Of a stretch of 64,000 bases of DNA, positions 3,254 through 55,296 are shown piece by piece; within the stretch, counting starts at the first letter, position 1, and each line of letters begins with the position of its first letter. The position numbers and the translations under genes were made by a program. The stretch spans positions 5,986 to 69,985 of the forward strand of contig JBMNIZ010000008.1 of NCBI GenBank assembly GCA_050951405.1. Direction: 5' to 3'. Below the pieces are notes generated by a model. The model ran no database searches. It had not been told where the DNA came from and worked only from the letters and a program-made list of their open reading frames with translations. The DNA comes from Bacillota bacterium (lineage in GTDB: Bacteria > Bacillota > DULZ01).

Positions 3254-4093
3254 TTAGTATTCATTGGGAAGCTCTTTCAGCTGGGCCAGGGTAAAAACCG
3301 GCCCATCAAGGCAGACATAGCGGCTCCCCAAGTTACAGCGGCCGCACTTGCCGATACCGCATTTCATCCGCATTTCCAGGGTAGTGACGATTTGTTCCGG
3401 TTGAAAACCCATCTTATCCAGGGATTGGAGCACAAATTTGATCATAATGGGAGGACCGCAGGTTAAAGCGATGGTATTGACCGGGCTGGGATTAAGTTTT
3501 TCCAAAAAAGCCGGCACAAAACCCACATGTCCCTGCCAGTTTTCGTCTCCTGCATCCACGGTCACACTCACCTGGGTATCCTTCACCTTAGGCCAGTTCT
3601 CAAAAAGGTCTTCTTTGAAGCAGAGATCCGCAGGAGAACGGGCCCCGTAAACAATATGCAGCTTGCCGAAATCCTCCCGGTGCTCCACACAATAGTTGAT
3701 CAGAGAACGTACCGGGGCCAATCCGATACCGCCGCCGATAAAGAGAACGTCTTTTCCTTGAAAAAGATCCAGGGGAAAACAATTACCGTAAGGCCCCCGG
3801 ATGCCCACTTCCTGGCCGACTACCGCTTCATGGAGGGCTTCCGTTAAAGTGCCGACCTTTTTGATGGCAAATTCCAGGTGATTTTCGCCCTGGGAAGTAA
3901 CGGAAAACATGGCTTCCCCTACCGGCAGCAAAGAGAGCATGCCCAGCTGTCCCGGCATGGGATGAAAGGGCTTACCCTCATCGGTAGTAATATGAAAGGT
4001 CTTTACATCGGGAGTTTCCTCCACAATTTTGACAATCTTTCCGATCTTCGGCAGTAAGGGATTAGCAGAAGCTTGACCATTTGCCTTAGTCAT
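3254..4093 (-). CDS. FAD/NAD(P)-binding ferredoxin-reductase-type oxidoreductase with C-terminal 2Fe-2S (AsrB / sulfhydrogenase gamma / FloxA-like)
   Basis: 279 aa; GGGIGLAP nucleotide-binding motif; C-terminal CGIGKCGRC cluster motif; overlaps next gene by 8 nt. Confidence 0.7.
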   Translation of the reverse strand: MTKANGQASANPLLPKIGKIVKIVEETPDVKTFHITTDEGKPFHPMPGQLGMLSLLPVGEAMFSVTSQGENHLEFAIKKVGTLTEALHEAVVGQEVGIRGPYGNCFPLDLFQGKDVLFIGGGIGLAPVRSLINYCVEHREDFGKLHIVYGARSPADLCFKEDLFENWPKVKDTQVSVTVDAGDENWQGHVGFVPAFLEKLNPSPVNTIALTCGPPIMIKFVLQSLDKMGFQPEQIVTTLEMRMKCGIGKCGRCNLGSRYVCLDGPVFTLAQLKELPNEY

Positions 4094-5096
4094 GGATGGG
4101 CACCTCCCTTAACTGATTGATCACCCTGGTGATATCAAGGGTAACCGGGCACTTCACCAGGCAACGCCCGCATCCTACACAACCCCACTTCTCATACCTT
4201 TCCGGCATATACTGAAGTTTATGCAGGAAACGCTGGCGGACCCTTTCTTTCTTAGTGGGTCTGGGATTGTGCCCCCCGGCCATTAAAGTATATTCCTTGT
4301 ACATACAGGAGTCATAGCAGCGATACTTTACTCCCTTTTCGCCCCTGTTCCTGTTTAGAATATCAAAACAGTGACAGGTGGGGCAAAGATAAGTGCAAGT
4401 GCCGCAGTTGATGCATTTACGGCAAATCTCCTCCCAAACGGGGTGCTCAAACATTTTCTGCAGCTTTTCCGTTAAACCTTCAACTTCCACCTGCAAGGAG
4501 CATTCTTTCCCTTCAGGGAATTCCTGGGAAGTATCTGCCAGAAGCGATTGAGTAGCCTGGAGCAGCTTTTCCCCTTTTTCGCTCTGGGCTGAGAGAAGAA
4601 AAGCGTCGCCAGTATCAGCCATCATGATATCGGCCTGGGGCGCCCGGCCGGGATCGATTCCCCAAGAACTGCAGAAACAGCTGGGCTCCGGCTGCAGGCA
4701 GCCTAGAGATACCAAAACCGTTTCTTCCCGCTTTTTCTTGTAATAGATATCTTCAAAACCTTTGGCGAGAAAAACGTCATCCAACAATTCTATGGCTTTT
4801 ACGTCACAGGGTCTGATGCCCACAACCACCGTTGGGCCGCCGACACCATCCAGCTCCTGGACAGCAGCCTGAAGCTTCTTGGTTTCATATGCATAAAGCT
4901 CCTCTGTTTGAGGGAAAAATATTTTTTTAGGAGAAATAATAGTATTTTTATCCAGCGCCGGTTCCGTTCCTTCTTCCCAGACGGCAAACTGGGTCAGCCC
5001 ATCATTGTCAACAGGAACATAAACTGTTGCCTGCTTCTTCAGCTCCGCCAAAAATCTCGGCAAATCCTTCTTTTGCAGTTTTTTCATTGATTTCAC
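4086..5096 (-). CDS. Iron-sulfur protein with two 4Fe-4S ferredoxin motifs (AsrA / sulfhydrogenase beta / FloxB-like)
   Basis: 336 aa; CINCGTCTYLCPTCHC and CVGCGRCLVKCP motifs. Confidence 0.65.
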   Translation of the reverse strand: MKSMKKLQKKDLPRFLAELKKQATVYVPVDNDGLTQFAVWEEGTEPALDKNTIISPKKIFFPQTEELYAYETKKLQAAVQELDGVGGPTVVVGIRPCDVKAIELLDDVFLAKGFEDIYYKKKREETVLVSLGCLQPEPSCFCSSWGIDPGRAPQADIMMADTGDAFLLSAQSEKGEKLLQATQSLLADTSQEFPEGKECSLQVEVEGLTEKLQKMFEHPVWEEICRKCINCGTCTYLCPTCHCFDILNRNRGEKGVKYRCYDSCMYKEYTLMAGGHNPRPTKKERVRQRFLHKLQYMPERYEKWGCVGCGRCLVKCPVTLDITRVINQLREVPIHD

Positions 5097-5109
5097 CGCC
5101 TCCTCGACC

Positions 5110-5997
5110 TTACATGAATTCTTCCGGATCTTCGGTTTTATACAGGCCCAGAGGAGGAGTTACCTCCAAATCGAGACCGGCTTCGTACTCGCCAAACAAC
5201 TCGTTGATATCCTTGGCAATCTTGCGGTTTAACAACATGATGGGAATACCGGCTGGACAGACCCTTTCGCACTCGCCGCACTCAGTACATCTTCCCGCCA
5301 CATGAAAGGCCCGGACCAGTCCATAAAACTCATTGCCCCCTCGGTCAACGCTTCTTTCCAGCCAATCCTGACCCTGATCGAAGATACACTCCCGGCAGTT
5401 ACAGGCGGGGCACACATTGCGGCAGGCATAACAGCGAAGACAGCGATCATAATGAGAGGACCAAAACTCATAGCGGCTGTCAGGATCCATTTTTTCGATT
5501 TCCTCTACCCCGGCAAATCGATCCTTTTGTGGGGATGGCTGCACTTCCTCTCCCAACAGCACGTCGTAAATCACCGGATTGGGATGGGTGCAGTAAAGGC
5601 ACTTTTCCTCCAGAGGCAGGTCCTGAATTTTCTCCGGTCCGGCTTCTTTCGCCGCCTGAATACTCTTCATGCCCGGACAGGGAATACCGATCAAATAGAT
5701 TTTATCTCTATCCAGTTGTAAATCCTGCAGCAAACGGTTAACGCCCCGGGCATCACAACCCTTGACAAAAATAGCCGTTTTGCCTTCCTTCTGCCTATAC
5801 TCCATGAGATATTTGGCCAGATTAACCGCACAAAACTCATCCCAGATCAGACAGTCCGTATCTTCCGGTCGGGTAATGAAAACCGGCGTGGAATCATAGA
5901 AAAAAGTGCCCTTTTCCCAACCGATAATCAGATCCACTTCTTTCTTTTTAAGCAACTCTTTGGCCAGCTGCCGCATTTTTTCCGTCACTGACTTCAT
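5110..5997 (-). CDS. FrhB/FdhB-family (coenzyme F420 hydrogenase beta-like) iron-sulfur flavoprotein, FloxC-like
   Basis: 295 aa; CLRCYACRNVCPACNC and CTECGECERVCP motifs; ATGA overlap with mvhD stop. Confidence 0.6.
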   Translation of the reverse strand: MKSVTEKMRQLAKELLKKKEVDLIIGWEKGTFFYDSTPVFITRPEDTDCLIWDEFCAVNLAKYLMEYRQKEGKTAIFVKGCDARGVNRLLQDLQLDRDKIYLIGIPCPGMKSIQAAKEAGPEKIQDLPLEEKCLYCTHPNPVIYDVLLGEEVQPSPQKDRFAGVEEIEKMDPDSRYEFWSSHYDRCLRCYACRNVCPACNCRECIFDQGQDWLERSVDRGGNEFYGLVRAFHVAGRCTECGECERVCPAGIPIMLLNRKIAKDINELFGEYEAGLDLEVTPPLGLYKTEDPEEFM

Positions 5998-6431
5998 TTG
6001 GCATCCCTCAACTTCCTATTGGGTCCCAGAGGCCGGATGCGCTCCGACAAATCCGCGATTACCTGAGCGAATTTCGGTCCCTCTGATCCTGAAACCCAAC
6101 GCACTTCAAATCTTTCAGGATCCAGACCCGTGTACTCCAGCATCCGTTGCATAATCAGATAACGGCGCCGGGTGAAATAATTGCCACTACCATAGTGGCA
6201 GTCACCGGGGTGTCAGCCGGCCACTAAAACTGCATCGGCCCCCCGTTTAAAGGCCCGGAGAACAAATTGGGGATTAACCCGGCCCGAACAGGGGACGCGG
6301 ATGACGCGAACATGAGGAGGATATTGGAGACGATTCAGCCCAGCCAGGTCAGCACCCGCATAAGCGCACCAGTGACAGCAAAAGGCTATTATTTTCGGCT
6401 CCCAATTGGCTCCGTGATTTTCTAGAGACAT
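5994..6431 (-). CDS. mvhD: MvhD-like hydrogenase/heterodisulfide-reductase iron-sulfur subunit, predicted selenoprotein (in-frame TGA at 6213..6215)
   Basis: ORF track stops at TGA after ...AVLVAG. Reading through gives [20 protein letters not shown]..., matching the MvhD GCHPGDCHY motif with Sec in place of the first Cys. The frame then stays open to a TGA at 5994 (ATGA overlap with next gene). Likely start is [22 protein letters not shown] at 6431. Confidence 0.7.
6183..6215 (-). other. UGA-Sec recoding site with candidate SECIS hairpin 13 nt downstream (mRNA GCCACUA-UGG-UAGUGGC)
   Basis: Perfect 7-bp stem and 3-nt loop at the spacing typical of bacterial SECIS elements; palindrome gccactaccatagtggc on + strand 6183..6199. 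Confidence 0.55.
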
Positions 6432-8416
6432 AAAGCTTCCACCTCCGCTAAGATTTGCTGATCGGTAAAGCCTTTGACAGTGATCGCCCCGGACCGGCAG
6501 GCCACATTGCAGGCACCACAACCCTGGCAAAGACCCTTATTGACCGCAGCCACCATTCTTTCCTGCATCTTGCCTGCTACCCTTTCCTGCAAGGGAACCA
6601 GCTCAATGGCTTTGTAAGGGCAGACTCCCACGCAAATGCCGCAGCCGGCACAGATGGCGTTATCAACAGTGGCCACCATGGGGTCGGTGGGCATTTCCGT
6701 TTTGGAAAAGAGGCTGGTCACTTTTACAGCAGCAGCGCTGGCCTGGCTGACCGTATCGGGAATATCCTTCGGCCCCTGACAGGCCCCGGCCAAGAAGACC
6801 CCCGCCGTAAAGGTTTCCACCGGCCTGAGCTTGGGATGGGCTTCCTGGAACCAGCCGTCTTTATCCGTGGAGATGCTGGCCAGCTTGGCCACCTTCTCGA
6901 AACCGGCGGCCGGCACCATGGCAGTAGCCAAAACCACCAGGTCCGCCTCCACTTCCACCGGGCGGCCCAGCAGTGTATCTTCACCTTTGACCACCAGTTT
7001 GCCCTCCCGGGGATAGATTTTGGAAACCCTGACCCCGTAAATACACAGCCCCTTCCTCCACCGTCCTTTCATAGAACTCGTCATAGGCCTTGCCCGGAGT
7101 CCGGACATCCATGTAGAAGACGAAGGCCTGACCGTCGGGAATCTTCTCCAGGACCTGATGGGCGTGTTTCGCCGTATACATGCAGCAGGCCCGGGAACAG
7201 TAGCTCTTCCCTTTGGTCAGATCTCTGGAACCGGCACACTTAATGAAAGACCACTGTTTTCGGTTCCTGCCCGTCGGAAGGACGAATAATCTTCCCTCCC
7301 GTCGGGCCGGACGCACTGGCCATTCTTTCAAACTGCATCCCGCTGATCACATCGGGATACCTGCCGTAACCATATTCACCGTACGCCTCTTCCCAGGCGA
7401 AGAGATCATAACCGGTGGCGACGATGATGGCGCCGAACTTCTCATCAATGATCTCGTCCTGCTGCTCGTAATCAACGGCCCCGGCCGGGCAGAATCTTCT
7501 GGCAGATACCACAACGCCCTCTGGTAAAGAGGCGGCAGTGTTCCTTGTCAATTACCGGCACATTGGGCACGGCCTGGGGAAATGGGAGTGTAAATGGCTT
7601 TCCGCTGGCCCAAACCGCATAGTCAAATTCGCTGGGTACTTTCGCTTGGGCATTTCTCCTGGCAAAGACCGCATCCGGTGCACCTGCTTTCGTCTACCAG
7701 ACGGGCTTTCTTCCTGAATCTTGACTTGGTAAGATTGCCCACATAGCCCCCGATTTCTTCCACTTCGGAGTAGGTTAAAGTTCTAATGTTAGGGTGCTGC
7801 GCCGCAGCAACCATTTTCGGCGTGCTAATTCAGGCGGAGCAGTCCAGGGTCGGGAAGGTCTTATCCAGCCTGACCATATTCCCGCCGATGGTGGGCTCCC
7901 TTTCCACCAGAACCACCTGGTAACCGGCATCAGCCACATCGATGGCCGCCTGCATCCCGGCAATACCGGCGCCGATCACCAAGCGCCCGCCTTTCCACCG
8001 GAATGGTGGTCAGCTCCAGGGGCTCATTTTTCGCCACCTTGGCCACAGCACTGCGCACCAGGTCGATGGCCTTGGCCGTGGCTTTTTCCTTATCTTTGTG
8101 TACCCAGGCACATTGCTCCCGGATATTGGCCATTTCCATGAGGAACTGGTTAATGCCGCCACTTTCACAAGCCTTCCGAAAAGTAGTCTCATGCAAGTCT
8201 CGGGGTGCAGGATGCCACCACCACCCGGTCCAGGTCATGCTCGGCGATGGCCTGTCTTGATCAAGTCCTGGCCCGGTTCCGAACACATATATTGATAATC
8301 GGTGGCAAAGGCCACATCAGGACATTTCCGCCGCTGTCAGCCGCTACTTTTTTCACATCCACCGTGGAGGCAATGTTGGTTCCACAATGACAAACAAAAA
8401 CTCCTACCCGTTTCAC
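6422..8416 (-). pseudogene. hdrA: hdrA (heterodisulfide reductase subunit A). It carries an in-frame TGA at the conserved Cys of the FPTxDCSxC motif (probable Sec) and at least six apparent frameshifts
   Basis: GTG start with AGGAGGG RBS. N-terminus VKRVGVFVCHCGTNIA. Fragments in three frames: [84 protein letters not shown]. Also [28 protein letters not shown]...YCSRACCMY and a C-terminal double ferredoxin. Overall span ~665 codons as expected for HdrA. Confidence 0.75.
7792..7832 (-). other. UGA-Sec codon of hdrA (7830..7832) plus a downstream hairpin with a bulged U (mRNA GGUUGCUGC-GGC-GCAGCACC)
   Basis: TGA aligns with the second Cys of the DCSMCI motif of HdrA. The hairpin lies 17 nt downstream, with an 8-bp stem, a bulged U and a G-rich apical loop, as in bacterial SECIS. 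Confidence 0.5.
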
Positions 8417-8443
8417 GCTTCTTCCCTCCTCGTTGCCGGATGT

Positions 8444-9315
8444 CTAAGCAAGTCCTTTTTCTCTAAAAGAGGCAGCCCGTTCACAAAATGTTTGGGCAGA
8501 CCCTAATTCTTTCGGGCCGTAGCCAAAAGCCAGCCCCATCAATTCCGTAAAGTAGAAGATGGGCAGATCGTACTTCTCCCTGGTAAGCTGCCCTCAGTCC
8601 CTTTCTGCCTCATGTCCAGGTTCATGAAGCACAAGGGGCAGGCCACCGCAATACAATCGGCTCCATTAGCCTTGGCATCAGCAAAAATGTTGCGCAGAAG
8701 AGGTCCCGCCTCCCTGGACAGAGTAGTGGTATGCCCGGCGCCACAACACTCTACCTTGAAGGACCAGTCCACGGGCGCGGCACCCAGCATCTCCATTAGT
8801 CGATCCATGCTCTGCGGGTTTTCCGCATCATCGAAACCCGTAGTTTCCACGGGACGGACCAGCAAACAACCATAATAGCAGGCAACTTTCAAACCTGTTA
8901 AAGGCCTGACCACTTTTTCCTGGATCTGTTCCTGATCCACCCGATTAGCCAGCAAATCCAGCAAGGATAAAGTCTGGTTGGATGCCTCATAATCCATTTC
9001 AATAATGCCCGCCACTTCTTCCTGGCACTCCTTGGAATTTCGTACCGCCAATTCCACTACCCGCATCCTGTTGTAACAGGCTGCACAGGGCACGGCCACA
9101 TCCAGACCTTCTTTTTCCGCCAGGGCCAGGTTTCGAGCCGGCAAAGCAAACCCCAATAACCGGTTGGTGGCATGGGCGGCAGAGGCCCCACAGCAATTCC
9201 AATCGGGTATTTCCCACAACTCCAATCCCAGGTGTTTCGCTACCAGTTTGGTGGAAAGATTGTACTCAACACCTGTAGCCTCAAGAGAACAACCGGGGTA
9301 ATAAGCATATTTCAA
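8444..9315 (-). CDS. hdrB: hdrB (heterodisulfide reductase subunit B, two CCG domains), one apparent frameshift near 8600
   Basis: NCCGASAAH and ECCGAGHTT CCG-domain motifs. The C-terminus continues in another frame as EKYDLPIFYFTELMGLAFGYGPKELG...REKGLA, ending at TAG 8444. Confidence 0.8.
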
Positions 9316-9884
9316 CGCTTTTCACCTCCCGCAGCGCGAACCCTTTCAAAAATACGTTTAACCGCCTTCTGTCCCCCGCTTCTCTTCGGCAGAGGATGAA
9401 CTTTGCCGTTCAGCAAAAGAGGCGGCCCCAAGAGCACATCTTTAAATAATTGCCCTGACTTTAAATTAAAAAAAGCAATCAGCAAAGCTTCCTGTACCCG
9501 CCCGAAATTTTCCACCAGACTTAAAAAGGTGTCGCTGAAGATATCTACGGTTTTTACAGGTACTTTGCCTCGCCTTTTCGCTTCCATCCGCAGGGTCTCC
9601 ATCAGCTTAGGAATATCAATTCCTTTTGGGCAGCGAGCATAACAAGTGGCACAGTGGGCACAAACCCAAATGGATTTCGCTCCCAGTGCCTTTTCTCCCA
9701 GCCCCAACTGCAGCATCCGAATCACCTGATGTGGCGTGTAGTCCATGGCTGCAGACAGAGGGCATCCGGCAGAACACTTGCCGCACTGATAGCAATCCTG
9801 GACATTGACCCCACTGTCTAAACGGACCAGCTCCTTGAAACTCCGGCCCGCAGTTAAAGTGGAAGCAAGTTCCAAGTTTTCCAT
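9312..9884 (-). CDS. hdrC: hdrC (heterodisulfide reductase subunit C, two 4Fe-4S motifs)
   Basis: 190 aa; CYQCGKCSAGCP and CAHCATCYARCP. Confidence 0.85.
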   Translation of the reverse strand: MENLELASTLTAGRSFKELVRLDSGVNVQDCYQCGKCSAGCPLSAAMDYTPHQVIRMLQLGLGEKALGAKSIWVCAHCATCYARCPKGIDIPKLMETLRMEAKRRGKVPVKTVDIFSDTFLSLVENFGRVQEALLIAFFNLKSGQLFKDVLLGPPLLLNGKVHPLPKRSGGQKAVKRIFERVRAAGGEKR

Positions 9885-10111
9885 ACAATCCCCCTCTTTA
9901 CAGCAAAATAAAAGCCATTTGTAAGAAAAAGCGCAAGCTCCTTAAAAAAAATGAAAAAGCCGCCCGGCAATTTTATATATTCGTTAACCTAAGCGAAATT
10001 CCTGCCCCGTCGCATCAAATTTCGCAAAAATACCGCATCTGGATACATCTTCCTTGCTTTCCTTACTTTCAGACAGATCGGGTATATCCGACTAACTCGA
10101 ATGAAGTATAT

Positions 10112-11182
10112 ATGAAAAGACAGATGCCTTTGTCTACAGGAACAAATTGCGGAAGGGGAACCATCGATGCTCTTTCCTTTCTTATCCGGTACCGGCGGAC
10201 TGATCCTTTTCTTTTGCCGGCATGCGCTGGATCAAAAAAGGACTGGACCAGGGCCGGCCGGAGGGGACTGGAAACCGCCATCAGCCTCTACTCACCGCCA
10301 CTCCCCTAGTGGCCACCCTGACCGGTACCGTCATCACCATGCTCTTCCAGAGCAGCAGCGCCGTCACCGTCCTCACCGTGGGTCTGGTCAACTCCGGCCT
10401 CATGACTTTTGTCCAGGGGCTGGGCATCGTCCTGGGCACCAACATCGGCACGACCTTTACCGTCCAGCTGCTGGCTTTTGAGTTCGACTCTCCTGGCACC
10501 CTGGCTGCTGGTGGGCGGGCTTCTGTTACGCAGCATGGTTTACACCGGAATGACCTCTGGCAGGGCAGTAGGGAGAAACCCTCTCCGGCCTGGGACTGGT
10601 CTTTTGCGGCCTCCACCTGTTTCGTCTCTCTTTTGCACCCTCTGCAAAGCCAGCCCTCTTTTCCTGGGCTGGCTCTCTTCTCTGGGAGACAACTACTCTA
10701 TGGCCCTGGTGACCGGCCTAATGGCCACTGCCCTGCTCCAGTCCAGCACCGCCGTCACCGCCGTCACCATCGTCCTGGGCAGCCAGGGGCACCTGACCAC
10801 TGGAGACCGCTATCGCCCTCATGCTGGGATCAAATATCGGCACCTGCTCCACGGCCCTTCTTGCTTCTTTTAACGCAGCTGCCTGGAGGCCCGCCGCATC
10901 GCCATGGCCCACGTAGTCCTCAACGTCCTGGGAGCCATCATCTTCTTTCCCCTGATCGATTTCTTTGCGGACTGCCTGCGATACCTTTCCCCTCTCCTGC
11001 CCCGCCAAATCGCCCACGGCCATACCCTGTTCAACCTGTCATTTCCTCTCTCCTGGTCCTACCCTTTCTTACCCTGCTTTCGCCCGCCTCATCATCTTTT
11101 TGGTACCGGACAAAAAATAATGGCTGCCGGAATGGCCAGCCCCGTCGTGAGTTATTTTCATAGTAGACCCCCATGCCGCTAG
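10112..11182 (+). pseudogene. Na+/phosphate cotransporter (NptA / Na_Pi_cotrans family), split across three frames
   Basis: Fragments MLFQSSSAVTVLTVGLVNSGLMTFVQGLGIVLGTNIGTTFTVQLLAFE, LLQSSTAVTAVTIVLGSQG and HVVLNVLGAIIFFPLIDFFADCL lie in different frames. The 313-aa ORF has a Pro/Arg-rich out-of-frame tail. Confidence 0.55.
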
Positions 11183-11446
11183 CGCGGCACCAGCAGAGCA
11201 TGAAAAACATCCAGGGAGGGGTGGTTATTCCGGCGCAGAGCGACCTTGAGCCGAGCGGCTAACCAAGGTTAGCGAGGCCGAGGGCGGAGGCGGGCCCGAG
11301 GACAGGACGTCCGAGGCCGACCATTGAGGCAAGGATGCCGAATTGGTCGGGAAGCCCGCCGGAGCCAGAGGAAGAGCGCTACCTTGGTCCGCGAGGATCA
11401 CCGGGAGCGGCTGCCGGAATGACCAGCCCCGTCACGAGTTATTTTC
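11117..11446. repeat. Two ~40-bp direct repeats (11117-11158 and 11407-11446, 37/40 identical: GGCTGCCGGAATGRCCAGCCCCGTCRTGAGTTATTTTCA) bracketing a ~250-bp GC-rich segment
   Basis: Direct repeat read from the sequence; the intervening DNA is >65% GC with repeated CCGAGG/GAGGC motifs and small hairpins (GCTAACC-aagg-TTAGC). Confidence 0.6.
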
Positions 11447-11502
11447 AAAGCAGTAACATTTCCTGCAGTCCCATTACGCACAATTTAACCAAAACAGCCA
11501 CT

Positions 11503-12216
11503 TTAAAAAACCACCCGCTGATTGTGCGTATATACATTTAACCGGCCTCCCCGAACGGAACCAACCAGGGTCACTCCCAATTCTTCACCAAGCTGGACAG
11601 ACAAATCGCTGGGGGCGGAGCGGGAAGCCAGGACCGGCACTCCCAACTTGGCCGCCTTGACCATGATTTCCGAAGTACAGCCTGCCGGTGGTTAAGAGCA
11701 GCTTATCCGCCAGAGATATGCCGTCCAGAAAACACCGGCCCAGGATCTTATCGGCAGCATTGTGCCTGCCCACATCTTCCCGGAGAAACAAGATTCTTCT
11801 CGCTGGTGCCAAGAGCGGCGCTGTGGGAGCCCCGGGTCCGCCGGTAAAGTTCACCCATTCTCTGCATTTCTTTCATCAAAGCCAAGATTTCTTTCCCTTT
11901 AACCAGAAGAGAAGAAGTTACGGGCCGGCAGTGGGAAGAATCCGCATAATGTAAAAAGAAGTCCCTTTGCCGCAGCCGGTGGTAATATATCTTTTCAGAA
12001 AGGTCCGCCGAGCCAACAGGGAAGTATGATCCGACTGCACCCAGGCCAATCCCTTCTCCCTGTCCAGCTGCACTCGCCGCAAATGGCCCGATCAGCCAAA
12101 AAACCCTCCGCCACCAAAAAACCTACTGCCAGCTCTTCCTGATCCTGGGGAGTGCATAGAAGAGTGACAATTTCTTCTTCGTTAAAATAAATGGTCAGAG
12201 GTCTTTCGGCGATCAC
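11503..12216 (-). pseudogene. fdhD: fdhD (formate dehydrogenase accessory sulfurtransferase), frameshifted into at least three frames
   Basis: Fragments LTIYFNEEEIVTLLCTPQDQEELAVGFLVAEG, EDVGRHNAADKILG and SEIMVKAAKLGVPVLASRSAP...LGVTLVGSVRGGRLNVYTHN. No formate dehydrogenase catalytic gene nearby. Confidence 0.65.
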
Positions 12217-12394
12217 CTCTCCTGCCAGGGTTTCTTTTTTCTGTGGTTTTTTATTCCCATGGTATCGTAGATAACCTTTTCTGTAAGGCTGGACATCTGT
12301 TCCACCTCAAATAAAAATCCTTTATGGCTTTTCTTTCTATTCTAACTTAAAACAAAACAAAAAGACAAATTCATTCCAGTTTATTTAACGAAAA

Positions 12395-12604
12395 ATGCGC
12401 ACAATAAAAAAGCGGCAGCTTGCTAAGGAGGTTCAATCTTTGGCCAAATTAATGTCCGAAGAACTGCGCTGGGAGTTAGCCAAGGAATTAGGCGTGGACC
12501 ACATCGTGGCCACAGAGGGCTGGGGAGGAGTTCCTTCCCGGGAATGTGGAAATCTGGTGCGCAAAGCTATTGAACTAGCGGAGCGAAGCCTGGTGCAACG
12601 ATAG
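12395..12604 (+). CDS. Small acid-soluble spore protein, alpha/beta-type-like (divergent); start may be the TTG at 12431 behind an AAGGAGG RBS
   Basis: 69 aa; EELRWELAKELGV...PSRECGNLVRKAIELAE resembles the SASP core (EIAxEFGV...TSRANGSVGGEITKRLV); followed by a strong terminator. Confidence 0.45.
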   Translation: MRTIKKRQLAKEVQSLAKLMSEELRWELAKELGVDHIVATEGWGGVPSRECGNLVRKAIELAERSLVQR

Positions 12605-12606
12605 CT

Positions 12607-12640
12607 GCCGAAAAAAGGCCGCTTTCCGGCGGCCTTTTCC
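12607..12640. terminator. Bidirectional rho-independent terminator (AAAAAAGGCCGC-tttccg-GCGGCCTTTTCC) shared by the SASP gene (+) and the MCP / fla-che operon end (-)
   Basis: GC-rich 8-bp stem flanked by A-run and T-run. Confidence 0.7.
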
Positions 12641-12679
12641 CATTATTTTCCTTCTGGCGATAGTCTAAAAAAATCTTCT

Positions 12680-14005
12680 TTAATTTTCTGTCTGCATATG
12701 TTTGACCATATCCATTAAATCCTTGGAAAGATTGGACAGCCTGTTGACATATTCCGGTGCTCCAGATAGTTGGCGGCTATTTCCTCCACGGAAGCTGCCA
12801 GCTCCTGGGTGCTTCCTCCGGTTTGGGCGGCAATGTTTTCGATCTGCGCCATATGCTGAGCCACCTGGCGCCGCCGGCCGCCATTTGCTGGGTAGCATAA
12901 GAGACTTGTTGAATTTCCCGGCCACATCCTCAACGGATTTGATTATAGTTTCAAAAGCTCGCCCCGCCTCGGTCACCACTTGGATACCGCCGGCCGCTTC
13001 CTGGGTCCCCTGTTCCATGGATTCCACCGCTTTTTTCGTATCCTGTTGGATCTGCTGGATCATTTCCGCAATCTGCCCAGCCGCCGCTCCGGCCTGCTCA
13101 GCCAATTTTCTCACCTCTTCCGCCACCACGGCAAATCCCCGTCCTTGCTCTCCCGCCCTGGCGGCTTCAATGGCTGCATTCAAAGCCAGCAGATTGGTCT
13201 GCTCAGCAATGCTGGTGATGGTCTCCACGATTTGTCCAATTTCTATGGATCTTTCACCCAAAAGCCCCACCGTTTGAGAAGAACTGTGGACTGCCTTGCT
13301 GATCACCTTCATCTGCTCAATGGACTTGCTGATGGTCACCCCTCCCTGGGAAGCGATCTCCGCCGTCTCCCGCGAAAGATCGGATACGGCACGGGCGTTG
13401 GCCGCTATCTGCTGGATATCTTCAGACATGCGGCTGATAGTGGCAGAAATATCCTCGATACTGCCGGTCTGGTTTTCCATGCCCAGGGCTACCTGCTGAA
13501 TGGTCTGAGCGATTTGCTCAGTAGACTGGGATGATTGCTCCACATCAGCCTGCAAATTTCCGGCCATTTCCGCCACTTCCGCAGCCACCTCTCTGATTTT
13601 CAAAACAAAAGTCCTGAAGTTCTCCACCATCAAGTTAAAACCCCTGGCCAGGTCCAGCAGCTCATCATTGCTTTTACAGGCAGTTTGTACGGTCAAATCC
13701 CCTTTTTCCGCCCTTTTCATGGCCTTAACCACCTGTCCCACCGGGCCGAGAATGACTACGGACATAATGTAACCTACAAAAATAGAAAAAAGAGTGCCTC
13801 CCGTGCCGGCCACCAGAATATTTCTTTGAAAAATCCTGAAAGCCTGGTCAGCATTGCCGTGCCGGGCTGCCTCTTGCAAAAGAACGGCCACCGTGGGAAA
13901 AGTATAGCCGACGGTAGCTATCCAGATGACAACGGTCACTACTGAAAAGATGAGCACCATTTTCACTTTCAGGCTCAAGCGCATCTTTCCACCTCTTTTG
14001 TTCAT
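12680..14005 (-). CDS. Methyl-accepting chemotaxis protein; C-terminal signalling domain disrupted by apparent frameshifts
   Basis: N-terminal TM helices; highly conserved MCP core [35 protein letters not shown]. The C-terminal continuation ([29 protein letters not shown]) lies in another frame (12715..12933). Confidence 0.8.
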
Positions 14006-48709: not shown

Positions 48710-50230
48710 TTACCGGAAATGGAGGAGGCGGTCCCGGTACTCACTTTTCATCTCCCGCTGCATGTAGTTGATAAAGCGCTGGAGAAAAACGGCGGCCTCG
48801 GCCCGGGACATGGTTTCTCCCGGAAGAACCCGGCCGAAAGCGTCACCGCTGACCAGCCCCATTTCCGCAGCCACATAAATGGCGTCCCTGGCCCAGTAAG
48901 GGATCTCCTGATCATCCCGGAAAGGGGTGGGGCTGGGGTTAAAGGGAGCCAAGCCTTCAAAACCCAGGGCCCGGATCAGGGCGGTGATGGCCTGGGCCCT
49001 GGTCAAGACTCCACCGGGATCAAAACTGCCCGGCCTGGTCCCTTTGATCACACCCGCCTGGCTGACCGCCTTTATTTCCTGATAATAGGGATGATCCACC
49101 CTCACATCCACAAAAAGCGAAATCTCCTTCTCTTCCTCCCGGTTGAATCGGTCAAAGGGATTGAGCGCAGTTTGCCGGCTCTCTTTGGCTGTCTCCATGC
49201 CCGTCAGGCGGGCCAAAGCCCGGGCAAATTCGCCTCGAGTCATGGGCAAGCGGGGTCCAAAGTACTCCCCCCGGGCCGGAAAGGCTTCCAAACTGGCCAG
49301 CTCCAAGATGGGCCCTTCCGCCCAGTGCCCGGAAATATCCCTGAAGAGAGGTACCGGCAGCCTCCTCTGGCTGGGCAGGGTGGTCAAGCGGGTGCTCCCG
49401 CTGACCTGTTTCCTGCTCCGGCCCTTCTCTAGGAAACCTTCTGCATCAAAGCGGGGCAAATTGGCCTCATAGCGCAGAATGCCCTCTTCCTGGATGCTTT
49501 CCAAGTAGCCCCCGGCAAAACTGATGGGAGTGGGTTCATTGGGCTGGTACGATAGCTCCCGGGAACGGTTAACGGAAATGTGGAGCTGGAAAGTACCCGA
49601 CCACTCCTGGGGATATCTTTCCTTATCTTTGATCAGATCCCCGGTAAAGCGGATAATCCCATCCACCCTCTGGGTTTCGGTGCTCCCCCAGGCATGGTCA
49701 TAGCCCACCGTATCCCCCCAGGTCTCCACCACAACAGTGGCCTGATCCTTGCCCAAAACATAAGTCTTCCGCCCGGACCAGTTCCCGCTGAAATAGGCCA
49801 CCGCCGGCTGGTGATCAACCAGAGTGGATTTGGAAAACTGGTAATCCTTCAGGGTGTAGCGATCCTTCCCTACGGTCACGGTTTCGCTGATCCGGTCCAC
49901 CGAAGTCACATAGACAGTCTGCTTGTCCTCCATTTTCTTCTCTTCACTGCTGCTGAAGGAAACAGTACGATTTAATTTAATGGAACCGGTACTGTCGCTG
50001 AGCTTGTAACTCAAGTTGGTCTGATAGCCCCCTCCCCGGCCGGCCCGCTGGCTTTTCTGCACGGTACCGGTCAGGATCACCGGCTCTCCGGTGAGAAAAG
50101 TCAGCTCTCGGTATTCCCTTTCGTTGGAGATGCCTTCTTCCAGATGGAGCAGGTATTCTGTTCCCAAGGCAGGCCCGGCCCCAAGCCAGAACAGGAGCAA
50201 ACTGCAGAAAAAAATTACCGCTTTTCTCAT
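48710..50230 (-). CDS. Secreted cell-wall protein with three C-terminal S-layer-homology (SLH) domains
   Basis: 506 aa; signal peptide MRKAVIFFCSLLLFWLGAGPALG; SLH repeats FRDISGHWAEGPI..., FVDVRVDHPYYQEIKAVSQAGVIKG..., FRDDQEIPYWARDAIYVAAEMGLVSG... Confidence 0.75.
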   Translation of the reverse strand: MRKAVIFFCSLLLFWLGAGPALGTEYLLHLEEGISNEREYRELTFLTGEPVILTGTVQKSQRAGRGGGYQTNLSYKLSDSTGSIKLNRTVSFSSSEEKKMEDKQTVYVTSVDRISETVTVGKDRYTLKDYQFSKSTLVDHQPAVAYFSGNWSGRKTYVLGKDQATVVVETWGDTVGYDHAWGSTETQRVDGIIRFTGDLIKDKERYPQEWSGTFQLHISVNRSRELSYQPNEPTPISFAGGYLESIQEEGILRYEANLPRFDAEGFLEKGRSRKQVSGSTRLTTLPSQRRLPVPLFRDISGHWAEGPILELASLEAFPARGEYFGPRLPMTRGEFARALARLTGMETAKESRQTALNPFDRFNREEEKEISLFVDVRVDHPYYQEIKAVSQAGVIKGTRPGSFDPGGVLTRAQAITALIRALGFEGLAPFNPSPTPFRDDQEIPYWARDAIYVAAEMGLVSGDAFGRVLPGETMSRAEAAVFLQRFINYMQREMKSEYRDRLLHFR

Positions 50231-50281
50231 GGCGAAACCTCCAGAGAATTCATTCCCACCCCGAAATCCCGATCAAAACCA

Positions 50282-52795
50282 TTAATAAGCTATCTTGAAC
50301 ACCAAATAAGCTGTCGTCAGGTCGTGAACAAAGTAAACTGTATCCCCCGGCTGCAGCTCTTCCGCCCGGATGAAAGAATGATCGTCAAAGACCAGGGCTT
50401 TCTCCAAATCCAAGACCAAATCGTCCGGGTTGGGAGTCCAGCGTTGATAGCCCTCGCTCCAGTCTTGAATTCGCTCCAGCCTGACCGTAGCGGTAACAGG
50501 GTCCGCTTCTTTCACCCGGCCGATGCTGGTCTTCATTACCGCCGCAAGGTTCCGGTGGAGGGACAAGGCCAGGATGTTCCCTTCCTCATCGGTGATCGCC
50601 AGCACATACCGCCTTTTATATTCCTCGCTCCAGCGGCTTTCAGCCAGATCCTCAGGGGAGATGAAACGGGCTGTTCGCACCGCATCCAGAATAAGGCCGG
50701 CCCTGGTCAGGACAAGCTGCTGGGTCCGGCGGCTTCGCGCCACCCGTTCCCATTGATTGTTTTGCAGATAATCGGCAGAGCTGATTTCCAGGGATGATTT
50801 TTCCACCCGATCCAGGCGGCCCCGGTAGACTTGCCAAGCCTTGGGAAGAAAATTCCGGGAAAGCATGATGAGAACGGATTCCCCGCCGGAAATCCTCTCC
50901 CCTTCCAGAAAAAGGTGTTCTCCTTGGTTGAAGTCAGCCGGATCCACCAGCTTACCGTCTTTGACAGCGATAGTCCCGGCTCTGAAGGAAAATATTTCTT
51001 CCCGATCGGACAGGGTTAACTGCTGCAAGGGCCAGGAAATCCGGTCAATAAAACCGTTGTAGCTTTCAGCCGGCCCCTCCCCCACTTTGAGCTTCAGCCC
51101 CTGGGGACTGCCGTAAACGGAAGAGAGGGCCAGATAGACTTCCGCACCTAACCGGCTTTTCCGCAATTCCTCCAGGGTCAGCTCTTTTTCTCCCAGGTAT
51201 AATTCCGCTCCCGGCGCCAATTCGATCAATTCCAAGTCCCGGCGGGGATACCAAAGACCGTAAAAATATTCCTCGGGGCCGCTCAGGCTGAGCCTTGATC
51301 CTTCCGGATAAACCCCTTCCAGGCGGCCCCTGACCAGTAAGTCCACCGCCCCTAGGGAAGGAGATACTATAATTCTCGCCAGCTCTCCCCTATCCAGGTC
51401 CGCTATCTCCAATTTCACCCGGTCCCCGACGTTCAGATCATCCAATCCCCGGATCCGACCCTCTCTTACCACTTGGGTGCCGGCCGTCAGCCGGTAGACT
51501 TTTTCCTGGCCGTTTTCCAAAAGATATAAGCGGTCCCCGTCCAGGGACTTGACCCGGCCGGTCTTCACCCCGGAACGGGCTGCGGCATAACCGGGCAAGA
51601 GGGAACCCAGGGTCCCTTCCACCGCCACTACCGCATTATCCTGGACCTTGACCCGGATTTCCTGCCCCACAAGCAGATCTTCCAGCCCTGCCGGGCGCCC
51701 GTCGATGGTCACGGAAAGGCGGGCATTAAGGGGAAGGATTCTCTCCCGCCCGGAGGAGATTTCCTTAAAAAAGAGAGTTTTTTGATCGGCACTGATGCCG
51801 GACAGCAGTCCCTCCAGCCAACCGCTTGCGGCCGGGAAAACAGCGGCAAAAGCAACCGAACCGGTTGGATCGAGGAAAAGCTCCAGCCGGTCGCCGGTTT
51901 TCAAAGCAGAAGCCCGGCTCAAACCTCCGTTTTTCAGGACCGGAAAACCGGCTCCCTCCGGAAAGAGAACCCGGATATATTCCAGTCCGTCTAATTCCAC
52001 TTCCAACTCCGTCCAACTGCCGGCCTGCCAAAAACTGCGCTGTCCCAGCACTCGGCCGGAAAGAAAATCCCAGCCCCGCCTGGGCCCGGCCAGAGGAGAA
52101 ATTCGATCTAAAATAGCCGACATTTCTCCCCGGGTCAGATGGCCCCGCGGGTGAAAAGTACCGTCCCGGTAACCGCTCATGATCTTTTGCTGGAGGAGGG
52201 GCTCAATGGCCGTTATATAGCTGGGCTTAAAATCCTGCCAGTCGGAAAAAGAATAGACGGACCGGATCCGGTCTCCATAAACCGGCGGGATCTCCAGGGC
52301 CCGAGCAAGCCAGAAGGCCGCCTCCTGGCGCTGGGCGGGCTTGGTCCTGTTCTGATCAAAAGCCCCCTGTTCTTCCGGTAAAATGATCCCCCGATTTTTG
52401 GCCACTTGAATGTAGCCCAAGGACCAAAGTCCGGCGGCGCTAGCGGGCGGCTGCGGCAACCCTGCTCCTATCAACTCGCCGGCTCTCTGGGCTTCCGCCT
52501 CCAGGCCGGCAATCCGCAGGACCAGGGCCAGGGCCTCTTCTTTGGTCAAAAGGCCGTTGGGCTGGAATTTACCGCCCCCCACACCCTGAATCACTCCCTG
52601 GGCGGCCATCCGATAAATGGGAGCAGCGGCCCAGTGGCCTTTGATGTCCTGGAAATCCATCTGGCGGTAAAGCTGGGCGGCATAGGGAGCCTCCCGGTAA
52701 ACGGGAATCTCCGCCCCCCAGGCGCCGGAAAAGACCGGCAAAAGCAGCAGGAAGATGTTGATGATGAAGACAGTGAAGATGGCTTTTCTTTTCAT
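50282..52795 (-). CDS. Cell-wall protein with three N-terminal SLH domains and a large C-terminal beta-rich domain
   Basis: Signal peptide MKRKAIFTVFIINIFLLLLPVFSGAWGAE; SLH repeats FQDIKGHWAAAPIYRMAAQGVIQG..., ...WSLGYIQVAKNRGII..., FSDWQDFKPSYITAIEPLLQQKIMSGYRDGTFHP... Confidence 0.75.
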   Translation of the reverse strand: MKRKAIFTVFIINIFLLLLPVFSGAWGAEIPVYREAPYAAQLYRQMDFQDIKGHWAAAPIYRMAAQGVIQGVGGGKFQPNGLLTKEEALALVLRIAGLEAEAQRAGELIGAGLPQPPASAAGLWSLGYIQVAKNRGIILPEEQGAFDQNRTKPAQRQEAAFWLARALEIPPVYGDRIRSVYSFSDWQDFKPSYITAIEPLLQQKIMSGYRDGTFHPRGHLTRGEMSAILDRISPLAGPRRGWDFLSGRVLGQRSFWQAGSWTELEVELDGLEYIRVLFPEGAGFPVLKNGGLSRASALKTGDRLELFLDPTGSVAFAAVFPAASGWLEGLLSGISADQKTLFFKEISSGRERILPLNARLSVTIDGRPAGLEDLLVGQEIRVKVQDNAVVAVEGTLGSLLPGYAAARSGVKTGRVKSLDGDRLYLLENGQEKVYRLTAGTQVVREGRIRGLDDLNVGDRVKLEIADLDRGELARIIVSPSLGAVDLLVRGRLEGVYPEGSRLSLSGPEEYFYGLWYPRRDLELIELAPGAELYLGEKELTLEELRKSRLGAEVYLALSSVYGSPQGLKLKVGEGPAESYNGFIDRISWPLQQLTLSDREEIFSFRAGTIAVKDGKLVDPADFNQGEHLFLEGERISGGESVLIMLSRNFLPKAWQVYRGRLDRVEKSSLEISSADYLQNNQWERVARSRRTQQLVLTRAGLILDAVRTARFISPEDLAESRWSEEYKRRYVLAITDEEGNILALSLHRNLAAVMKTSIGRVKEADPVTATVRLERIQDWSEGYQRWTPNPDDLVLDLEKALVFDDHSFIRAEELQPGDTVYFVHDLTTAYLVFKIAY

Positions 52796-53007
52796 GGGCC
52801 TTTTCGCCTCCAATTTGCGGTTACCAAAACCCTATCGGGGAGCGATGCGGTCATCGCCCCTTGCGGGCAAGGACGGAACCCTGCCCCTACAAATTTTTAC
52901 GTAATTTGCGGGATCCATGTAGGGGCCGGCGCCCACGCCGGCTCGCTTTAGGACCCGAAAGGATGCCCCCAAATTCCCACGACTGTATTCCCACATCCGA
53001 CGAACGT

Positions 53008-55296
53008 TCATTGGGCTACCAACATCACCCAAATGGGGCGCATGGTTTTCAGGGTTAAACGGGGCAGGTACCGGTCCTTGACCGCAGCCGCCGCTTCCCA
53101 CCGGCCTGCGTCATCATTGTATAGATAAAGAACTGCCTTTTCTCCCGGGCCCATCAAAGACGGCGCATAATCCATGGACAGGGTGATTTCCTGGTAGAAC
53201 AGCCCCTGGGGCAGGATTTCCTTGTCTTCGAACAGCTGCCAGCCCACGCTGTAAACCGGGCTGATGATCCGGCTGCCCCGGGGCAGCTTTTTCAAAGCCC
53301 TTTCCGCCTCCGCCTGTCCCAGGTCCCGGATCAGGATTTCCCCATAGGCGGAGGAACTGCCGGTCAAGACCGGCAAGAGGCTGTAAGGAGGCACTTCCAA
53401 CACCAGCTTGCCGGTATCGATGGTGAAAGACCAGACCGCCTGCTGCAAAGCATCCCGGCTGATCCGCACCGTCTTCAACGGTATTTTTTGGTAAGCAGGA
53501 GGAGTGAAGTCCACCTGATAAGCGGCCAAGGCCAAGGCCCGGGCAGAGGAAATCACCGCCGTCAACCGTCCCGTCTCGGACTGGACCAGCATCTCTTCCG
53601 GCTCCAGCTGGGGAACTGCCTTTTCGCCCCTGTCCGTCCTGGCATTGTCTTCATAGCTGAAATCTGAAACTCCCAGCTCATTGACCGCCCTCACCTTGAA
53701 ATAATAACGAGTGTTGGGCTGAAGACCCGTGGCATAATAAACTGTCCGGATGGTCTGGTCCAGGAAACGATAAGGGCCGCTGCGGGAATCGCTGATATAA
53801 ATTTCATAGTAATTGGCGAACTCCACCGGGGGCCACTGAATCTTAATAGTCTCGTGGTCCGCCCGGTCCGTCTCCAGCCAGTCCGGTGCCTCCGGCGCCA
53901 TACGGGGGCGCAGATAGAGAAAACCCTGGGGCAGGGCGGCCCAACCCCCGTCGGGGTTTCTCACCCTTACTTCCTGCCAACCCGGTTCACCGGGAGGAGT
54001 AAGAAAAGTCAGGGTCTGGGCATCCTGGACCTGCACCTCCTGGGCCGGCCTGCCTCCCACGAAAACAAGAGCGCCTTCTTGCAATCTTTCGCCCCGCAGG
54101 GTGACTCTCGTCCTTCCCGTACTTTCACCCCGATCGGGATCCAGGCCGTAGATGACGGGAAGTTCTATAGCATAGTAAGTAAATCCTTTCGCCAAAGTGG
54201 CCGCTCCCTGATCCGGGTTGATGACGGTGACATCTTTGGGGCCTTCCTCTCCTGGAGGCGTCAGGGCTCTAATGGTTTGATAATTCTCCACCACCACTTC
54301 CCTGGCGGGCACTCCGCCAATGTAGACCAGGGCCCCCGGCCGGAAATCGTTCCCGCTGATGGTAATAGCCGTTTCCCCCACTGCAGGACCTTTGTTTGGT
54401 TCCACCCGAAAAATCTGCGGCTCGCTGTCAGGCTCTTCATAGGTAAAAGCGGCGGTCAATGTATGGGTTCCCCCGTCGTAATTGGTCACTGTGACATCTT
54501 TCGGTCCGGGGGAGTGGGGCGGGATTTTCGCCCGGATGGTGTTCCCATCGATGACTTCCACGGACAAGGCCGTAATCCCGCCAAAATAGACCTCCGCCTG
54601 GTCACGAAAATCTTCACCGATGATCGTGACGATGATATGACCGATCACAGGCCCCCGGGAAGGCGATAGTTCCTTGACTACCGGCCGGCTGTCAGGAAGC
54701 CGGTAACGAAAGCCCTGTTTCAGCAAGGCTTCGGCTCCATCCGGGTTGACCAGTCTCACATCAAAGTAGCCGGTCCTCTCCTGGGCCGGTACTTTGACCC
54801 AAACCCGCTCCTGGCTTTCCACCCGCAGGTCTTGAGCCGGTACTTCCACCTCACCGAAGAAAACCCTGGCCCCTTCCCGGAAATCTTCTCCCAAGAGATA
54901 AGCCTCCGTACCGGCCACCCCTTGGCTGGGGTTGATGGAGACGATTTTTGGATTGGAAGTAACGTAGGTAAAAGCGTTTTTCAGAGTAAAGCTGCCCAAA
55001 TGTTCTCCGGTATTCATCACGGTCACATCGGCGGGGCCTTCCCTCCCCGGCGGGGTGATCACCCTGAGCTCCTTGTAACTGAGGAGCTCCACCGCTGGAG
55101 CCGGGATCCCGTTGAAAAACACCTTGATTCCTTCCCGGAAATCCTTACCGTGGATCACTACCGGAGTCCCCCCGTCCACCGGCCCCCGATCCGGTTCCAG
55201 GGAGAAAACCACCGGTTCGCTTTGGGGGGCCAAATATTCCACTCCCTGGGGCAGATGGGCGTTTCCCCCCGTCATCGTTGACCACGATAAGGTCAA
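53008..55296 (-). CDS. C-terminal part of a giant IPT/TIG-repeat surface protein (IPT repeats, then a fibronectin type III domain and a C-terminal domain); out of frame with 55145..58858 at a poly-C tract
   Basis: Repeats of ~85 aa with PxxGPxxGGTxVTIxGxxF signature. FN3-like YYEIYISDSRSGPYRF...TRYYFKVRAVNELG. Its N-terminus (NAHLPQGVEYLAPQSEP) continues the repeat that the upstream ORF ends in. Confidence 0.7.
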   Translation of the reverse strand: MTLSWSTMTGGNAHLPQGVEYLAPQSEPVVFSLEPDRGPVDGGTPVVIHGKDFREGIKVFFNGIPAPAVELLSYKELRVITPPGREGPADVTVMNTGEHLGSFTLKNAFTYVTSNPKIVSINPSQGVAGTEAYLLGEDFREGARVFFGEVEVPAQDLRVESQERVWVKVPAQERTGYFDVRLVNPDGAEALLKQGFRYRLPDSRPVVKELSPSRGPVIGHIIVTIIGEDFRDQAEVYFGGITALSVEVIDGNTIRAKIPPHSPGPKDVTVTNYDGGTHTLTAAFTYEEPDSEPQIFRVEPNKGPAVGETAITISGNDFRPGALVYIGGVPAREVVVENYQTIRALTPPGEEGPKDVTVINPDQGAATLAKGFTYYAIELPVIYGLDPDRGESTGRTRVTLRGERLQEGALVFVGGRPAQEVQVQDAQTLTFLTPPGEPGWQEVRVRNPDGGWAALPQGFLYLRPRMAPEAPDWLETDRADHETIKIQWPPVEFANYYEIYISDSRSGPYRFLDQTIRTVYYATGLQPNTRYYFKVRAVNELGVSDFSYEDNARTDRGEKAVPQLEPEEMLVQSETGRLTAVISSARALALAAYQVDFTPPAYQKIPLKTVRISRDALQQAVWSFTIDTGKLVLEVPPYSLLPVLTGSSSAYGEILIRDLGQAEAERALKKLPRGSRIISPVYSVGWQLFEDKEILPQGLFYQEITLSMDYAPSLMGPGEKAVLYLYNDDAGRWEAAAAVKDRYLPRLTLKTMRPIWVMLVAQ

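Follow-up and report, generated by a model that had tools for sequence, protein, structure and literature searches.

An in-frame UGA codon predicted to encode selenocysteine in the mvhD/flxD gene of an uncultured Bacillota bacterium

Does a TGA codon in the middle of an mvhD gene end a truncated protein, or does it encode selenocysteine (Sec)? We address this question for a 64,000-nucleotide stretch of DNA from a Bacillota bacterium (GenBank assembly GCA_050951405.1, contig JBMNIZ010000008.1, positions 5,986 to 69,985 of the forward strand; hereafter, the window), in which mvhD, as in all assemblies examined, is cut in two by gene callers. An earlier reading of the same DNA (the sequence-only reading) had proposed that the TGA stands in place of a conserved Cys codon and, with a hairpin downstream of it, marks bacterial Sec recoding. 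This proposal is supported here by the alignment of Cys-type with Sec-type homologues, by selection acting downstream of the codon, by the specificity of the hairpin for TGA-bearing genes and by codon covariation within it. Hence, we consider it highly probable (roughly 0.9), on comparative sequence evidence, that mvhD is a genuine selenoprotein gene, encoding a 145-residue MvhD/FlxD-type [2Fe-2S] adaptor with a UGA-encoded Sec73. The elements on which the argument turns are the following:

5994..6431, minus strand: mvhD/flxD coding sequence with the UGA read through, 145 amino acids, Sec predicted as residue 73 (translation, PF02662 and PDB 5ODC matches)
6213..6215, minus strand: predicted UGA Sec codon, aligned with the first Cys of G-C-H-P-G-D-C-H-Y (comparison with Cys-type and TGA-type homologues)
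6182..6200, minus strand: predicted bacterial Sec insertion sequence (SECIS) hairpin, U-GCCACUA / UGG loop / UAGUGGC-A (fold, model scan for bacterial SECIS elements, homologue comparison, covariation)
6439..6446, minus strand: Shine-Dalgarno-like GGAGGTGG, separated by a 7-nt spacer from the mvhD ATG and lying within the 3' end of hdrA (read from the sequence)

The mvhD frame starts with the ATG at 6431..6429, which overlaps the final 10 nt of hdrA, and reaches the in-frame TGA at 6215..6213 directly after the residues AVLVAG, exactly where the sequence-only reading had seen the called open reading frame (ORF) end. It then continues for 72 open codons (about 70 had been estimated) to a terminal TGA at 5996..5994, which shares the tetranucleotide ATGA with the start codon (5997..5995) of the flxC-like gene, in agreement with the claimed overlap of this stop with the next ATG. 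Alignment of the read-through product to MvhD families had been suggested as a check, and it gave a full-length match: with the TGA translated as Cys, the product covers positions 1-123 of 123 of PF02662 (FlpD/MvhD) with 185 bits (E = 6e-55; cut-off, 22.3 bits), and it aligns without gaps over ~131 residues to the MvhD protein of PDB 5ODC (chain D; E = 2.9e-52), the two having all conserved Cys positions in common. Among the six PDB matches, 9sfi_K is the weakest. In the NCBI record NLC37772.1, the same gene is given as a 72-residue 'hydrogenase iron-sulfur subunit' of an uncultured Clostridia bacterium, and its protein cluster consists of N-terminal mvhD fragments (7 members of 69-72 residues, other samples included).

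The identity of the codon was assessed with two sets of homologues. The Cys-type set, which served as a control, was collected by searching genome contigs with the Cys-substituted mvhD protein and comprises 80 loci with 82 sites. TGC or TGT occupies the equivalent codon, within G-C-H-P-G-D-C-H-Y, in 82/82 of these sites, a count to be read with the fact that all Cys-type loci returned carry an intact CHPGDCHY, itself one of the six peptide patterns searched; the TGA of the window thus falls on the first Cys of the MvhD signature, as had been proposed. The TGA-type set comes from a metagenome scan for the pattern GGN-TGA-CAY-CCN-GGN-GAY-TGY-CAY-TA, which returned at least 120 stretches, so that at least 120 metagenomic homologues carry TGA at exactly the mvhD codon. 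Eighty loci (L087-L166) were fetched; of the 81 sites in them, 74 have open frames of 40 codons or more to either side of the TGA. These 74 include 70 distinct sequences, whose open frames have a median length of 76 codons per side and whose translations are unmistakably MvhD. Compared with its nearest TGA-type relatives, the window gene shows proportions of non-synonymous (pN) and synonymous (pS) differences of ~0.24 and ~0.75-0.85 downstream of the UGA (pN/pS ~0.3), similar to those of the upstream half (pN ~0.16, pS ~0.8). This purifying selection indicates that the part beyond the TGA is translated in the same frame.

The hairpin described in the sequence-only reading, GCCACUA-UGG-UAGUGGC, is present letter for letter and begins 13 nt past the TGA (GCCACUA at 6199..6193, loop UGG at 6192..6190, UAGUGGC at 6189..6183), and one further pair, U6200-A6182, lengthens its stem to 8 bp. 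The apical loop lies 20 nt past the UGA, and the bare hairpin has an energy of -10.1 kcal/mol. All four constraints of the published bacterial SECIS (bSECIS) model (PMC13188914) are therefore matched, namely a 3-nt loop with G in second place, an 8-bp stem, a 20-nt spacing and the energy, which bears out the 'SECIS spacing' that had been ascribed to the element.

It is the comparison with homologues that takes the mvhD hairpin beyond chance. When a local hairpin was defined by an energy of at most -5 kcal/mol within +13..+40 after the codon, it was found in 94% of the 70 Sec-type but in 1-2% of the 82 Cys-type sequences, two sets of similar G+C content (Mann-Whitney p ~1e-25, which overstates the evidence and is best taken as indicative, since the sets are unlike in phylogenetic make-up and their members non-independent); the hairpin is thus nearly specific to TGA-bearing homologues. 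Within the TGA-type set, two mutually exclusive designs occur, UGCCACUA/UAGUGGCA (~22 sequences, the type of the window) and CAUUACC/GGUAAU (~48), both using the same C-H-Y-x-x-G-N codons with an offset of 2-3 nt. In these genes, CAT-TAC is paired with the Gly codon GGT in 48/48 cases and CAC-TAY mostly with AGT-GGC, whereas the Cys-type set uses all four combinations of His and Tyr codons (28, 27, 14 and 13 cases) and its Gly codon is free to vary. Each predicted SECIS design is thus held by synonymous codon choice in the TGA-type genes.

One Cys-type locus, L004:1746, from a Bacillota metagenome-assembled genome (MAG), carries a hairpin, GCCAUUAUACGAGUGGU, of -6.2 kcal/mol at the SECIS position and is one of the 1-2 Cys-type sequences reaching -5 kcal/mol. 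This hairpin may be a leftover of a Sec-to-Cys reversion.

Resequencing had been named as a check on the TGA, with TGC or TGT as the alternative outcome, and TGA was found in four independent assemblies. In three of them, L081 (JGI), L082 (ENA) and L083 (NCBI GCA_012512425.1, contig JAAZEG010000039.1), mvhD is identical to the window at each base, and the exact protein of the FlxC-like gene that follows it is encoded on JGI, ENA, NCBI and Logan contigs. The fourth, L084, is a strain variant that keeps both the mvhD TGA and the hairpin despite 16 nearby substitutions, 14 of which are synonymous, the other two being K62Q and A67G. In the comparison of L084:730-1167 with the window, all 16 fall within the 80 nt upstream of the UGA (window 6216-6295), the 220 nt downstream being unchanged, a clustering that suggests a recombination mosaic inside mvhD.

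A second predicted Sec codon lies in hdrA, the gene directly upstream of mvhD:

6422..8416, minus strand: hdrA, heterodisulfide reductase A-like flavoprotein (three-frame translation, comparison with L081-L083, NCBIfam HdrA2)
7830..7832, minus strand: second predicted Sec codon, at the CxxU site of hdrA (TGA in the window and in L083; motif from PMC13188914)
7795..7809, minus strand: hairpin UGCUGC / GGC / GCAGCA in hdrA (fold of the window and L083 copies)

In L083, hdrA is intact, with 659 residues and a single in-frame TGA, and it is likewise intact in L081 and L082; its NCBIfam HdrA2 match scores 844 bits, under the curated cut-off of 1100 bits of that model. The TGA stands in the context FPTLDCSA-U next to the FAD domain (residue 194 of 659 in L083). 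CxxU is a listed selenoprotein motif of HdrA (PMC13188914), and Sec197 has been described in HdrA of Methanococcus maripaludis (PMC13518236). The hairpin that follows, in full GG.UUGCUGC-GGC-GCAGCA.CC, has a stem lengthened by two extra G-C pairs, a loop starting 26 nt past the UGA and an energy of -11.8 to -11.9 kcal/mol, alike in the L083 and window copies. Among the TGA-type mvhD loci in which the hdrA CxxU motif was found, the site is TGA in 19 and Cys in 9. Hence, hdrA and mvhD appear to be two adjacent selenoprotein genes, as predicted from their codons and hairpins.

The hdrA copy of the window lies in the first of two aberrant patches. Patch 1 (6773-8799) covers hdrA together with the 3' end of hdrB and has no single readable frame, the frame being broken about 8 times. 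Relative to L081-L083, it contains 106 substitutions (~5%) and ~18 single-base insertions with 0 deletions, while its flanks are 100% identical. The substitutions, 72/106 of them at third positions, divide into 72 synonymous and 34 non-synonymous changes and into 84 transitions and 22 transversions; they look like real strain divergence, unlike the indels, which do not seem biological. Patch 2 (~10000-12750) spans a Na/Pi cotransporter gene (10222-11163, plus strand) and an FdhD-like region at ~11.3-12.1 kb. It differs from L081/L082 by ~5% mismatches and many single-base indels, with 35 or more insertions; up to 11011, every indel listed adds a base to the window and none removes one. Moreover, the ~380 nt at 11123-11502 of the window correspond to about 72 nt in L081. 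Outside both patches, where the mvhD region is located, the window is ~100% identical to the other assemblies. Probably, the patches are an assembly artefact, made of unpolished long-read (or chimeric) sequence over a strain-variable segment. A real hdrA pseudogene is unlikely, considering that the substitutions are mostly synonymous, at third positions and transitions and that the insertions are missing from the three other assemblies.

Besides the non-independence of the homologue sets, several observations weigh against Sec at this codon. Taken alone, the mvhD hairpin is weak evidence: when each of the 2045 TGA trinucleotides in the window was screened with a simple coding of the bSECIS constraints, 4.7% passed, with the mvhD hairpin ranking 31st by energy (-10.1 kcal/mol), and the 76-nt hairpin region gave z = -1.38 against shuffles, which is not statistically unusual by itself. 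None of the 4227 Rfam families covers the mvhD element at gathering thresholds over the whole window, and at permissive E-values the region 5900-8000 gave chance matches to microRNA and internal ribosome entry site models alone. None of selA, selB, selD and tRNA-Sec was found in the 64-kb window, so that Sec decoding by the organism is assumed; this result rests on the absence of an Rfam match and on a scan of ORFs against Pfam and NCBIfam, with the flagellar/chemotaxis stretch at 14-42 kb outside the scan, and ARAGORN found 0 tRNA genes in the window, hence no tRNA-Sec. Finally, hdrA, the obligate partner of mvhD, is frame-broken in this assembly (about 8 frame segments).

How, then, should other explanations of the TGA be judged? 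The window does contain error-like, insertion-only patches (6773-8799 and 10000-12750), and a miscalled TGC or TGT would account for the codon; since mvhD lies outside them, is base-identical in L081, L082 and L083, and retains its TGA in L084, which differs at 16 nearby positions, we give a sequencing or assembly error almost no credence. The TGA could also be a true stop, created by a nonsense mutation from TGC or TGT that leaves a 72-residue pseudogene or split gene with a decaying remnant downstream. Such a mutation needs a single base change, the public annotation NLC37772.1 indeed ends after 72 residues, and the neighbouring hdrA is likewise disrupted in the window. However, a decaying remnant accords poorly with the recurrence of the TGA across at least 120 divergent homologues that are open on either side of it, with a downstream pN/pS of ~0.3, with a TGA-specific hairpin kept by synonymous covariation or with a downstream stop that still shares bases with the start codon of the gene that follows, and the hdrA disruption is not present in three other assemblies; a true stop is therefore very improbable.

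Selenium-free read-through would leave the frame intact but put another residue at position 73, either through near-cognate Cys or Trp incorporation or following a recent loss of the Sec machinery that left a non-functional or leaky gene. No sel gene was found among the ORFs scanned in the window, and selenoprotein loss is documented among sister Clostridia genomes (PMC1794560), which gives this explanation some footing. Against it, canonical Sec codons with intact hairpins persist in two neighbouring genes, several strains retain the codons (the cluster of mvhD fragments has its 7 members of 69-72 residues), and the adjoining 924-residue molybdenum hydroxylase, described below, is closest to a selenium-dependent xanthine dehydrogenase family, a hint of selenium use. 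We regard selenium-free read-through as quite improbable. A reassigned genetic code was ruled out, since many long ORFs of the window, mvhD included, terminate at TGA, which points to the standard code. When the window was scanned for TGAs between long open frames, mvhD alone stood out; the hdrA site is masked by its frameshifts.

The gene is embedded in a set of seven consecutive minus-strand genes (3254..9884), in the order hdrC-hdrB-hdrA-mvhD-flxC-flxB-flxA. Apart from hdrA and mvhD, these are:

9312..9884, minus strand: hdrC, two [4Fe-4S] motifs (Pfam Fer4_8 and Fer4_17; JGI name heterodisulfide reductase subunit C)
8539..9315, minus strand: hdrB, CCG domains, with a TTG start overlapping the hdrC stop (Pfam CCG)
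5110..5997, minus strand: FlxC-like iron-sulfur protein, 295 amino acids (Pfam Fer4 families)
4086..5096, minus strand: FlxB-like iron-sulfur protein, 336 amino acids, resembling AsrA and sulfhydrogenase beta (Pfam Fer4_22)
3254..4093, minus strand: FlxA-like NAD(P)H/FAD/[2Fe-2S] oxidoreductase, 279 amino acids (Pfam NAD_binding_1, DHODB_Fe-S_bind and FAD_binding_6; NCBIfam AsrB-like)

The 3' end of hdrB is frameshifted in the window; its true end lies near 8413, and the protein has 299 residues in L081-L083. For the FlxB-like protein, the NCBIfam matches to ShyB and AsrA are under the cut-off. Stop and start codons overlap along the set, with TTGA at hdrC/hdrB, 10 nt at hdrA/mvhD, ATGA at mvhD/flxC and 8 nt at flxB/flxA, and because of these overlaps we read hdrC to flxA as one operon. 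By domain content, hdrCBA-mvhD(flxD)-flxCBA is an Flx-Hdr type module in which mvhD is predicted to take the role of FlxD. The association recurs among the 80 TGA-type mvhD loci, of which 64 have an FlxC-like homologue, 61 have hdrA and 29 have all of flxCBA, the last count being limited by the length of the contigs.

Next to the operon, at 225-2999 on the minus strand, lies the gene of a 924-residue molybdopterin hydroxylase whose N terminus carries [2Fe-2S] domains; the best NCBIfam match of the protein is TIGR03311, the selenium-dependent xanthine dehydrogenase (761 bits; cut-off, 830). This enzyme may represent a second, cofactor-type use of selenium beside the operon. Elsewhere, the window holds a chemoreceptor gene, flagellar and chemotaxis genes, and genes of S-layer and TIG-repeat proteins. 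Four consecutive large surface-type proteins are encoded at 48710-58858 (minus strand), set between flagellar genes: two SLH-domain proteins of 506 and 843 residues and two TIG/IPT-repeat proteins of 711 and 1237 residues, the latter with 11 TIG repeats.

We propose that hdrC to flxA would be expressed as a single minus-strand operon with translational coupling. At the UGA (6215..6213), the hairpin at 6200..6182 would recruit SelB-GTP carrying Sec-tRNA(Sec), as in the established bacterial mechanism; Sec would be inserted, and a further 72 codons would be translated, ending at the UGA overlapping the flxC start codon. Homology with MvhD, BamF and FlxD suggests that the protein would dock on HdrA and, like MvhD, VhuD and BamF (PMC6019823, PMC13518236, bioRxiv 10.64898/2026.04.10.717634), relay single electrons between an NAD(P)H-oxidising FlxABC-like input and the bifurcating flavin of HdrA. 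One detail of the sequence-only reading needs correction: the 63 Da shift it gave for proteomics is the difference between Sec and Ser, and the shift relative to Cys is about +47.9 Da (80Se vs 32S).

Selenoproteins of this kind are well documented. FrhD/MvhD/VhuD (PF02662) is listed among the experimentally supported selenoprotein families (PMC9312934, PMC13188914), and a 2006 comparative study found FrhD and HdrA selenoproteins in Syntrophomonas wolfei, Carboxydothermus hydrogenoformans, Desulfotomaculum reducens, Moorella thermoacetica and many Deltaproteobacteria, with 8 FrhD and 7 HdrA selenoproteins in Syntrophobacter fumaroxidans (PMC1794560). Four mvhD genes with Sec, mvhD1/2/3/5, are known from Desulfobacterium autotrophicum (PMC2702500). 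With the catalogued Sec-FrhD/MvhD/VhuD proteins, the window gene shares the domain, the substitution of UGA for a conserved Cys codon and a predicted SECIS hairpin within the ORF (PMC1794560, PMC2702500, PMC13188914), as well as a position directly downstream of an hdrA that is itself predicted to contain Sec. Unlike the catalogued members, it belongs to the MAG of an uncultured member of the Clostridia/Bacillota and is annotated as a 72-residue fragment; moreover, the motif given in review for the family is CxxU at the N-terminal site, whereas in the window mvhD the predicted Sec lies in G-U-H-P-G-D-C and the N-terminal CxxC keeps its Cys.

MvhD is known as a [2Fe-2S] adaptor that hands electrons to the bifurcating FAD of HdrA (PMC6019823, PMC13518236). 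Compared with MvhD of MvhAGD-HdrABC (PDB 5ODC) and VhuD of M. maripaludis, the setting here differs in that hydrogenase subunits (MvhA/G) are missing and the input module is Flx-like. Archaeal Sec insertion also differs, as it relies on a SECIS in the 3' untranslated region, whereas the predicted element of the window mvhD is a bacterial hairpin within the ORF. Archaeal VhuD presumably has its Sec at the equivalent of residue 73. A counterpart by domain types is the FlxABCD-HdrABC NADH dehydrogenase/heterodisulfide reductase of Desulfovibrio vulgaris (DVU2399-2404; Ramos et al., 2015, cited in PMC4759654), which has in common with the window HdrC, HdrB and HdrA, an MvhD-like FlxD, two iron-sulfur proteins and one FAD/NAD(P) [2Fe-2S] protein; the likeness is one of domain types, and the gene order of the window is hdrCBA-flxDCBA. 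Related loci occur in D. reducens (Dred_0137-0148 and Dred_1325-1330), where locus I lists under consecutive tags an HdrA, a 'pseudogene' (Dred_0138), two iron-sulfur proteins and an FAD/NAD(P) oxidoreductase (PMC4759654). Another Sec-containing relative is BamF of the class II benzoyl-CoA reductase of Geobacter metallireducens, with Sec at residue 19, discussed as a possible selenenylsulfide partner beside the cluster (bioRxiv 10.64898/2026.04.10.717634). BamF is a homologue of MvhD that serves as [2Fe-2S] adaptor on a bifurcating, HdrA-like subunit, the role predicted for the window mvhD product as well; BamF is, however, more than 100 residues longer and has its Sec near the N terminus, at another site, which judging by the residue number we infer to lie within the N-terminal Cys motif.

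Three further ideas go beyond the prediction of Sec at codon 73, and taken together we hold them to be rather unlikely. The mvhD UGA might sense selenium and so gate the entire Flx input module: since the mvhD stop and the flxC ATG overlap (ATGA), ribosomes would reach flxCBA by coupling only with Sec inserted at codon 73, and, if so, a lack of selenium would shut down the branch through which NAD(P)H feeds the Hdr complex. The two SECIS architectures could mark independent Cys-to-Sec conversions or, as another reading, co-evolution with different SelB lineages. Finally, Sec73 might be a direct ligand of the [2Fe-2S] cluster or lie adjacent to it.

We conclude that the window mvhD is a newly seen, mis-annotated case of a known selenoprotein family, to which its domain, Cys/Sec pairing, orthologues, bSECIS-type hairpin and hdrA neighbour all assign it. 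Since the MvhD family has been recognised as a family of selenoproteins in anaerobic bacteria from the mid-2000s on, this result is an annotation fix and no discovery, and it leaves the knowledge of selenoproteins and Hdr complexes unchanged. Possibly, the two predicted SECIS solutions written within the ORF on one conserved peptide could aid selenoprotein predictors for the MvhD family. For the lineage itself, as the gene is split in public records, metabolic reconstructions would miss both an intact Flx-Hdr bifurcation module and its predicted dependence on selenium.

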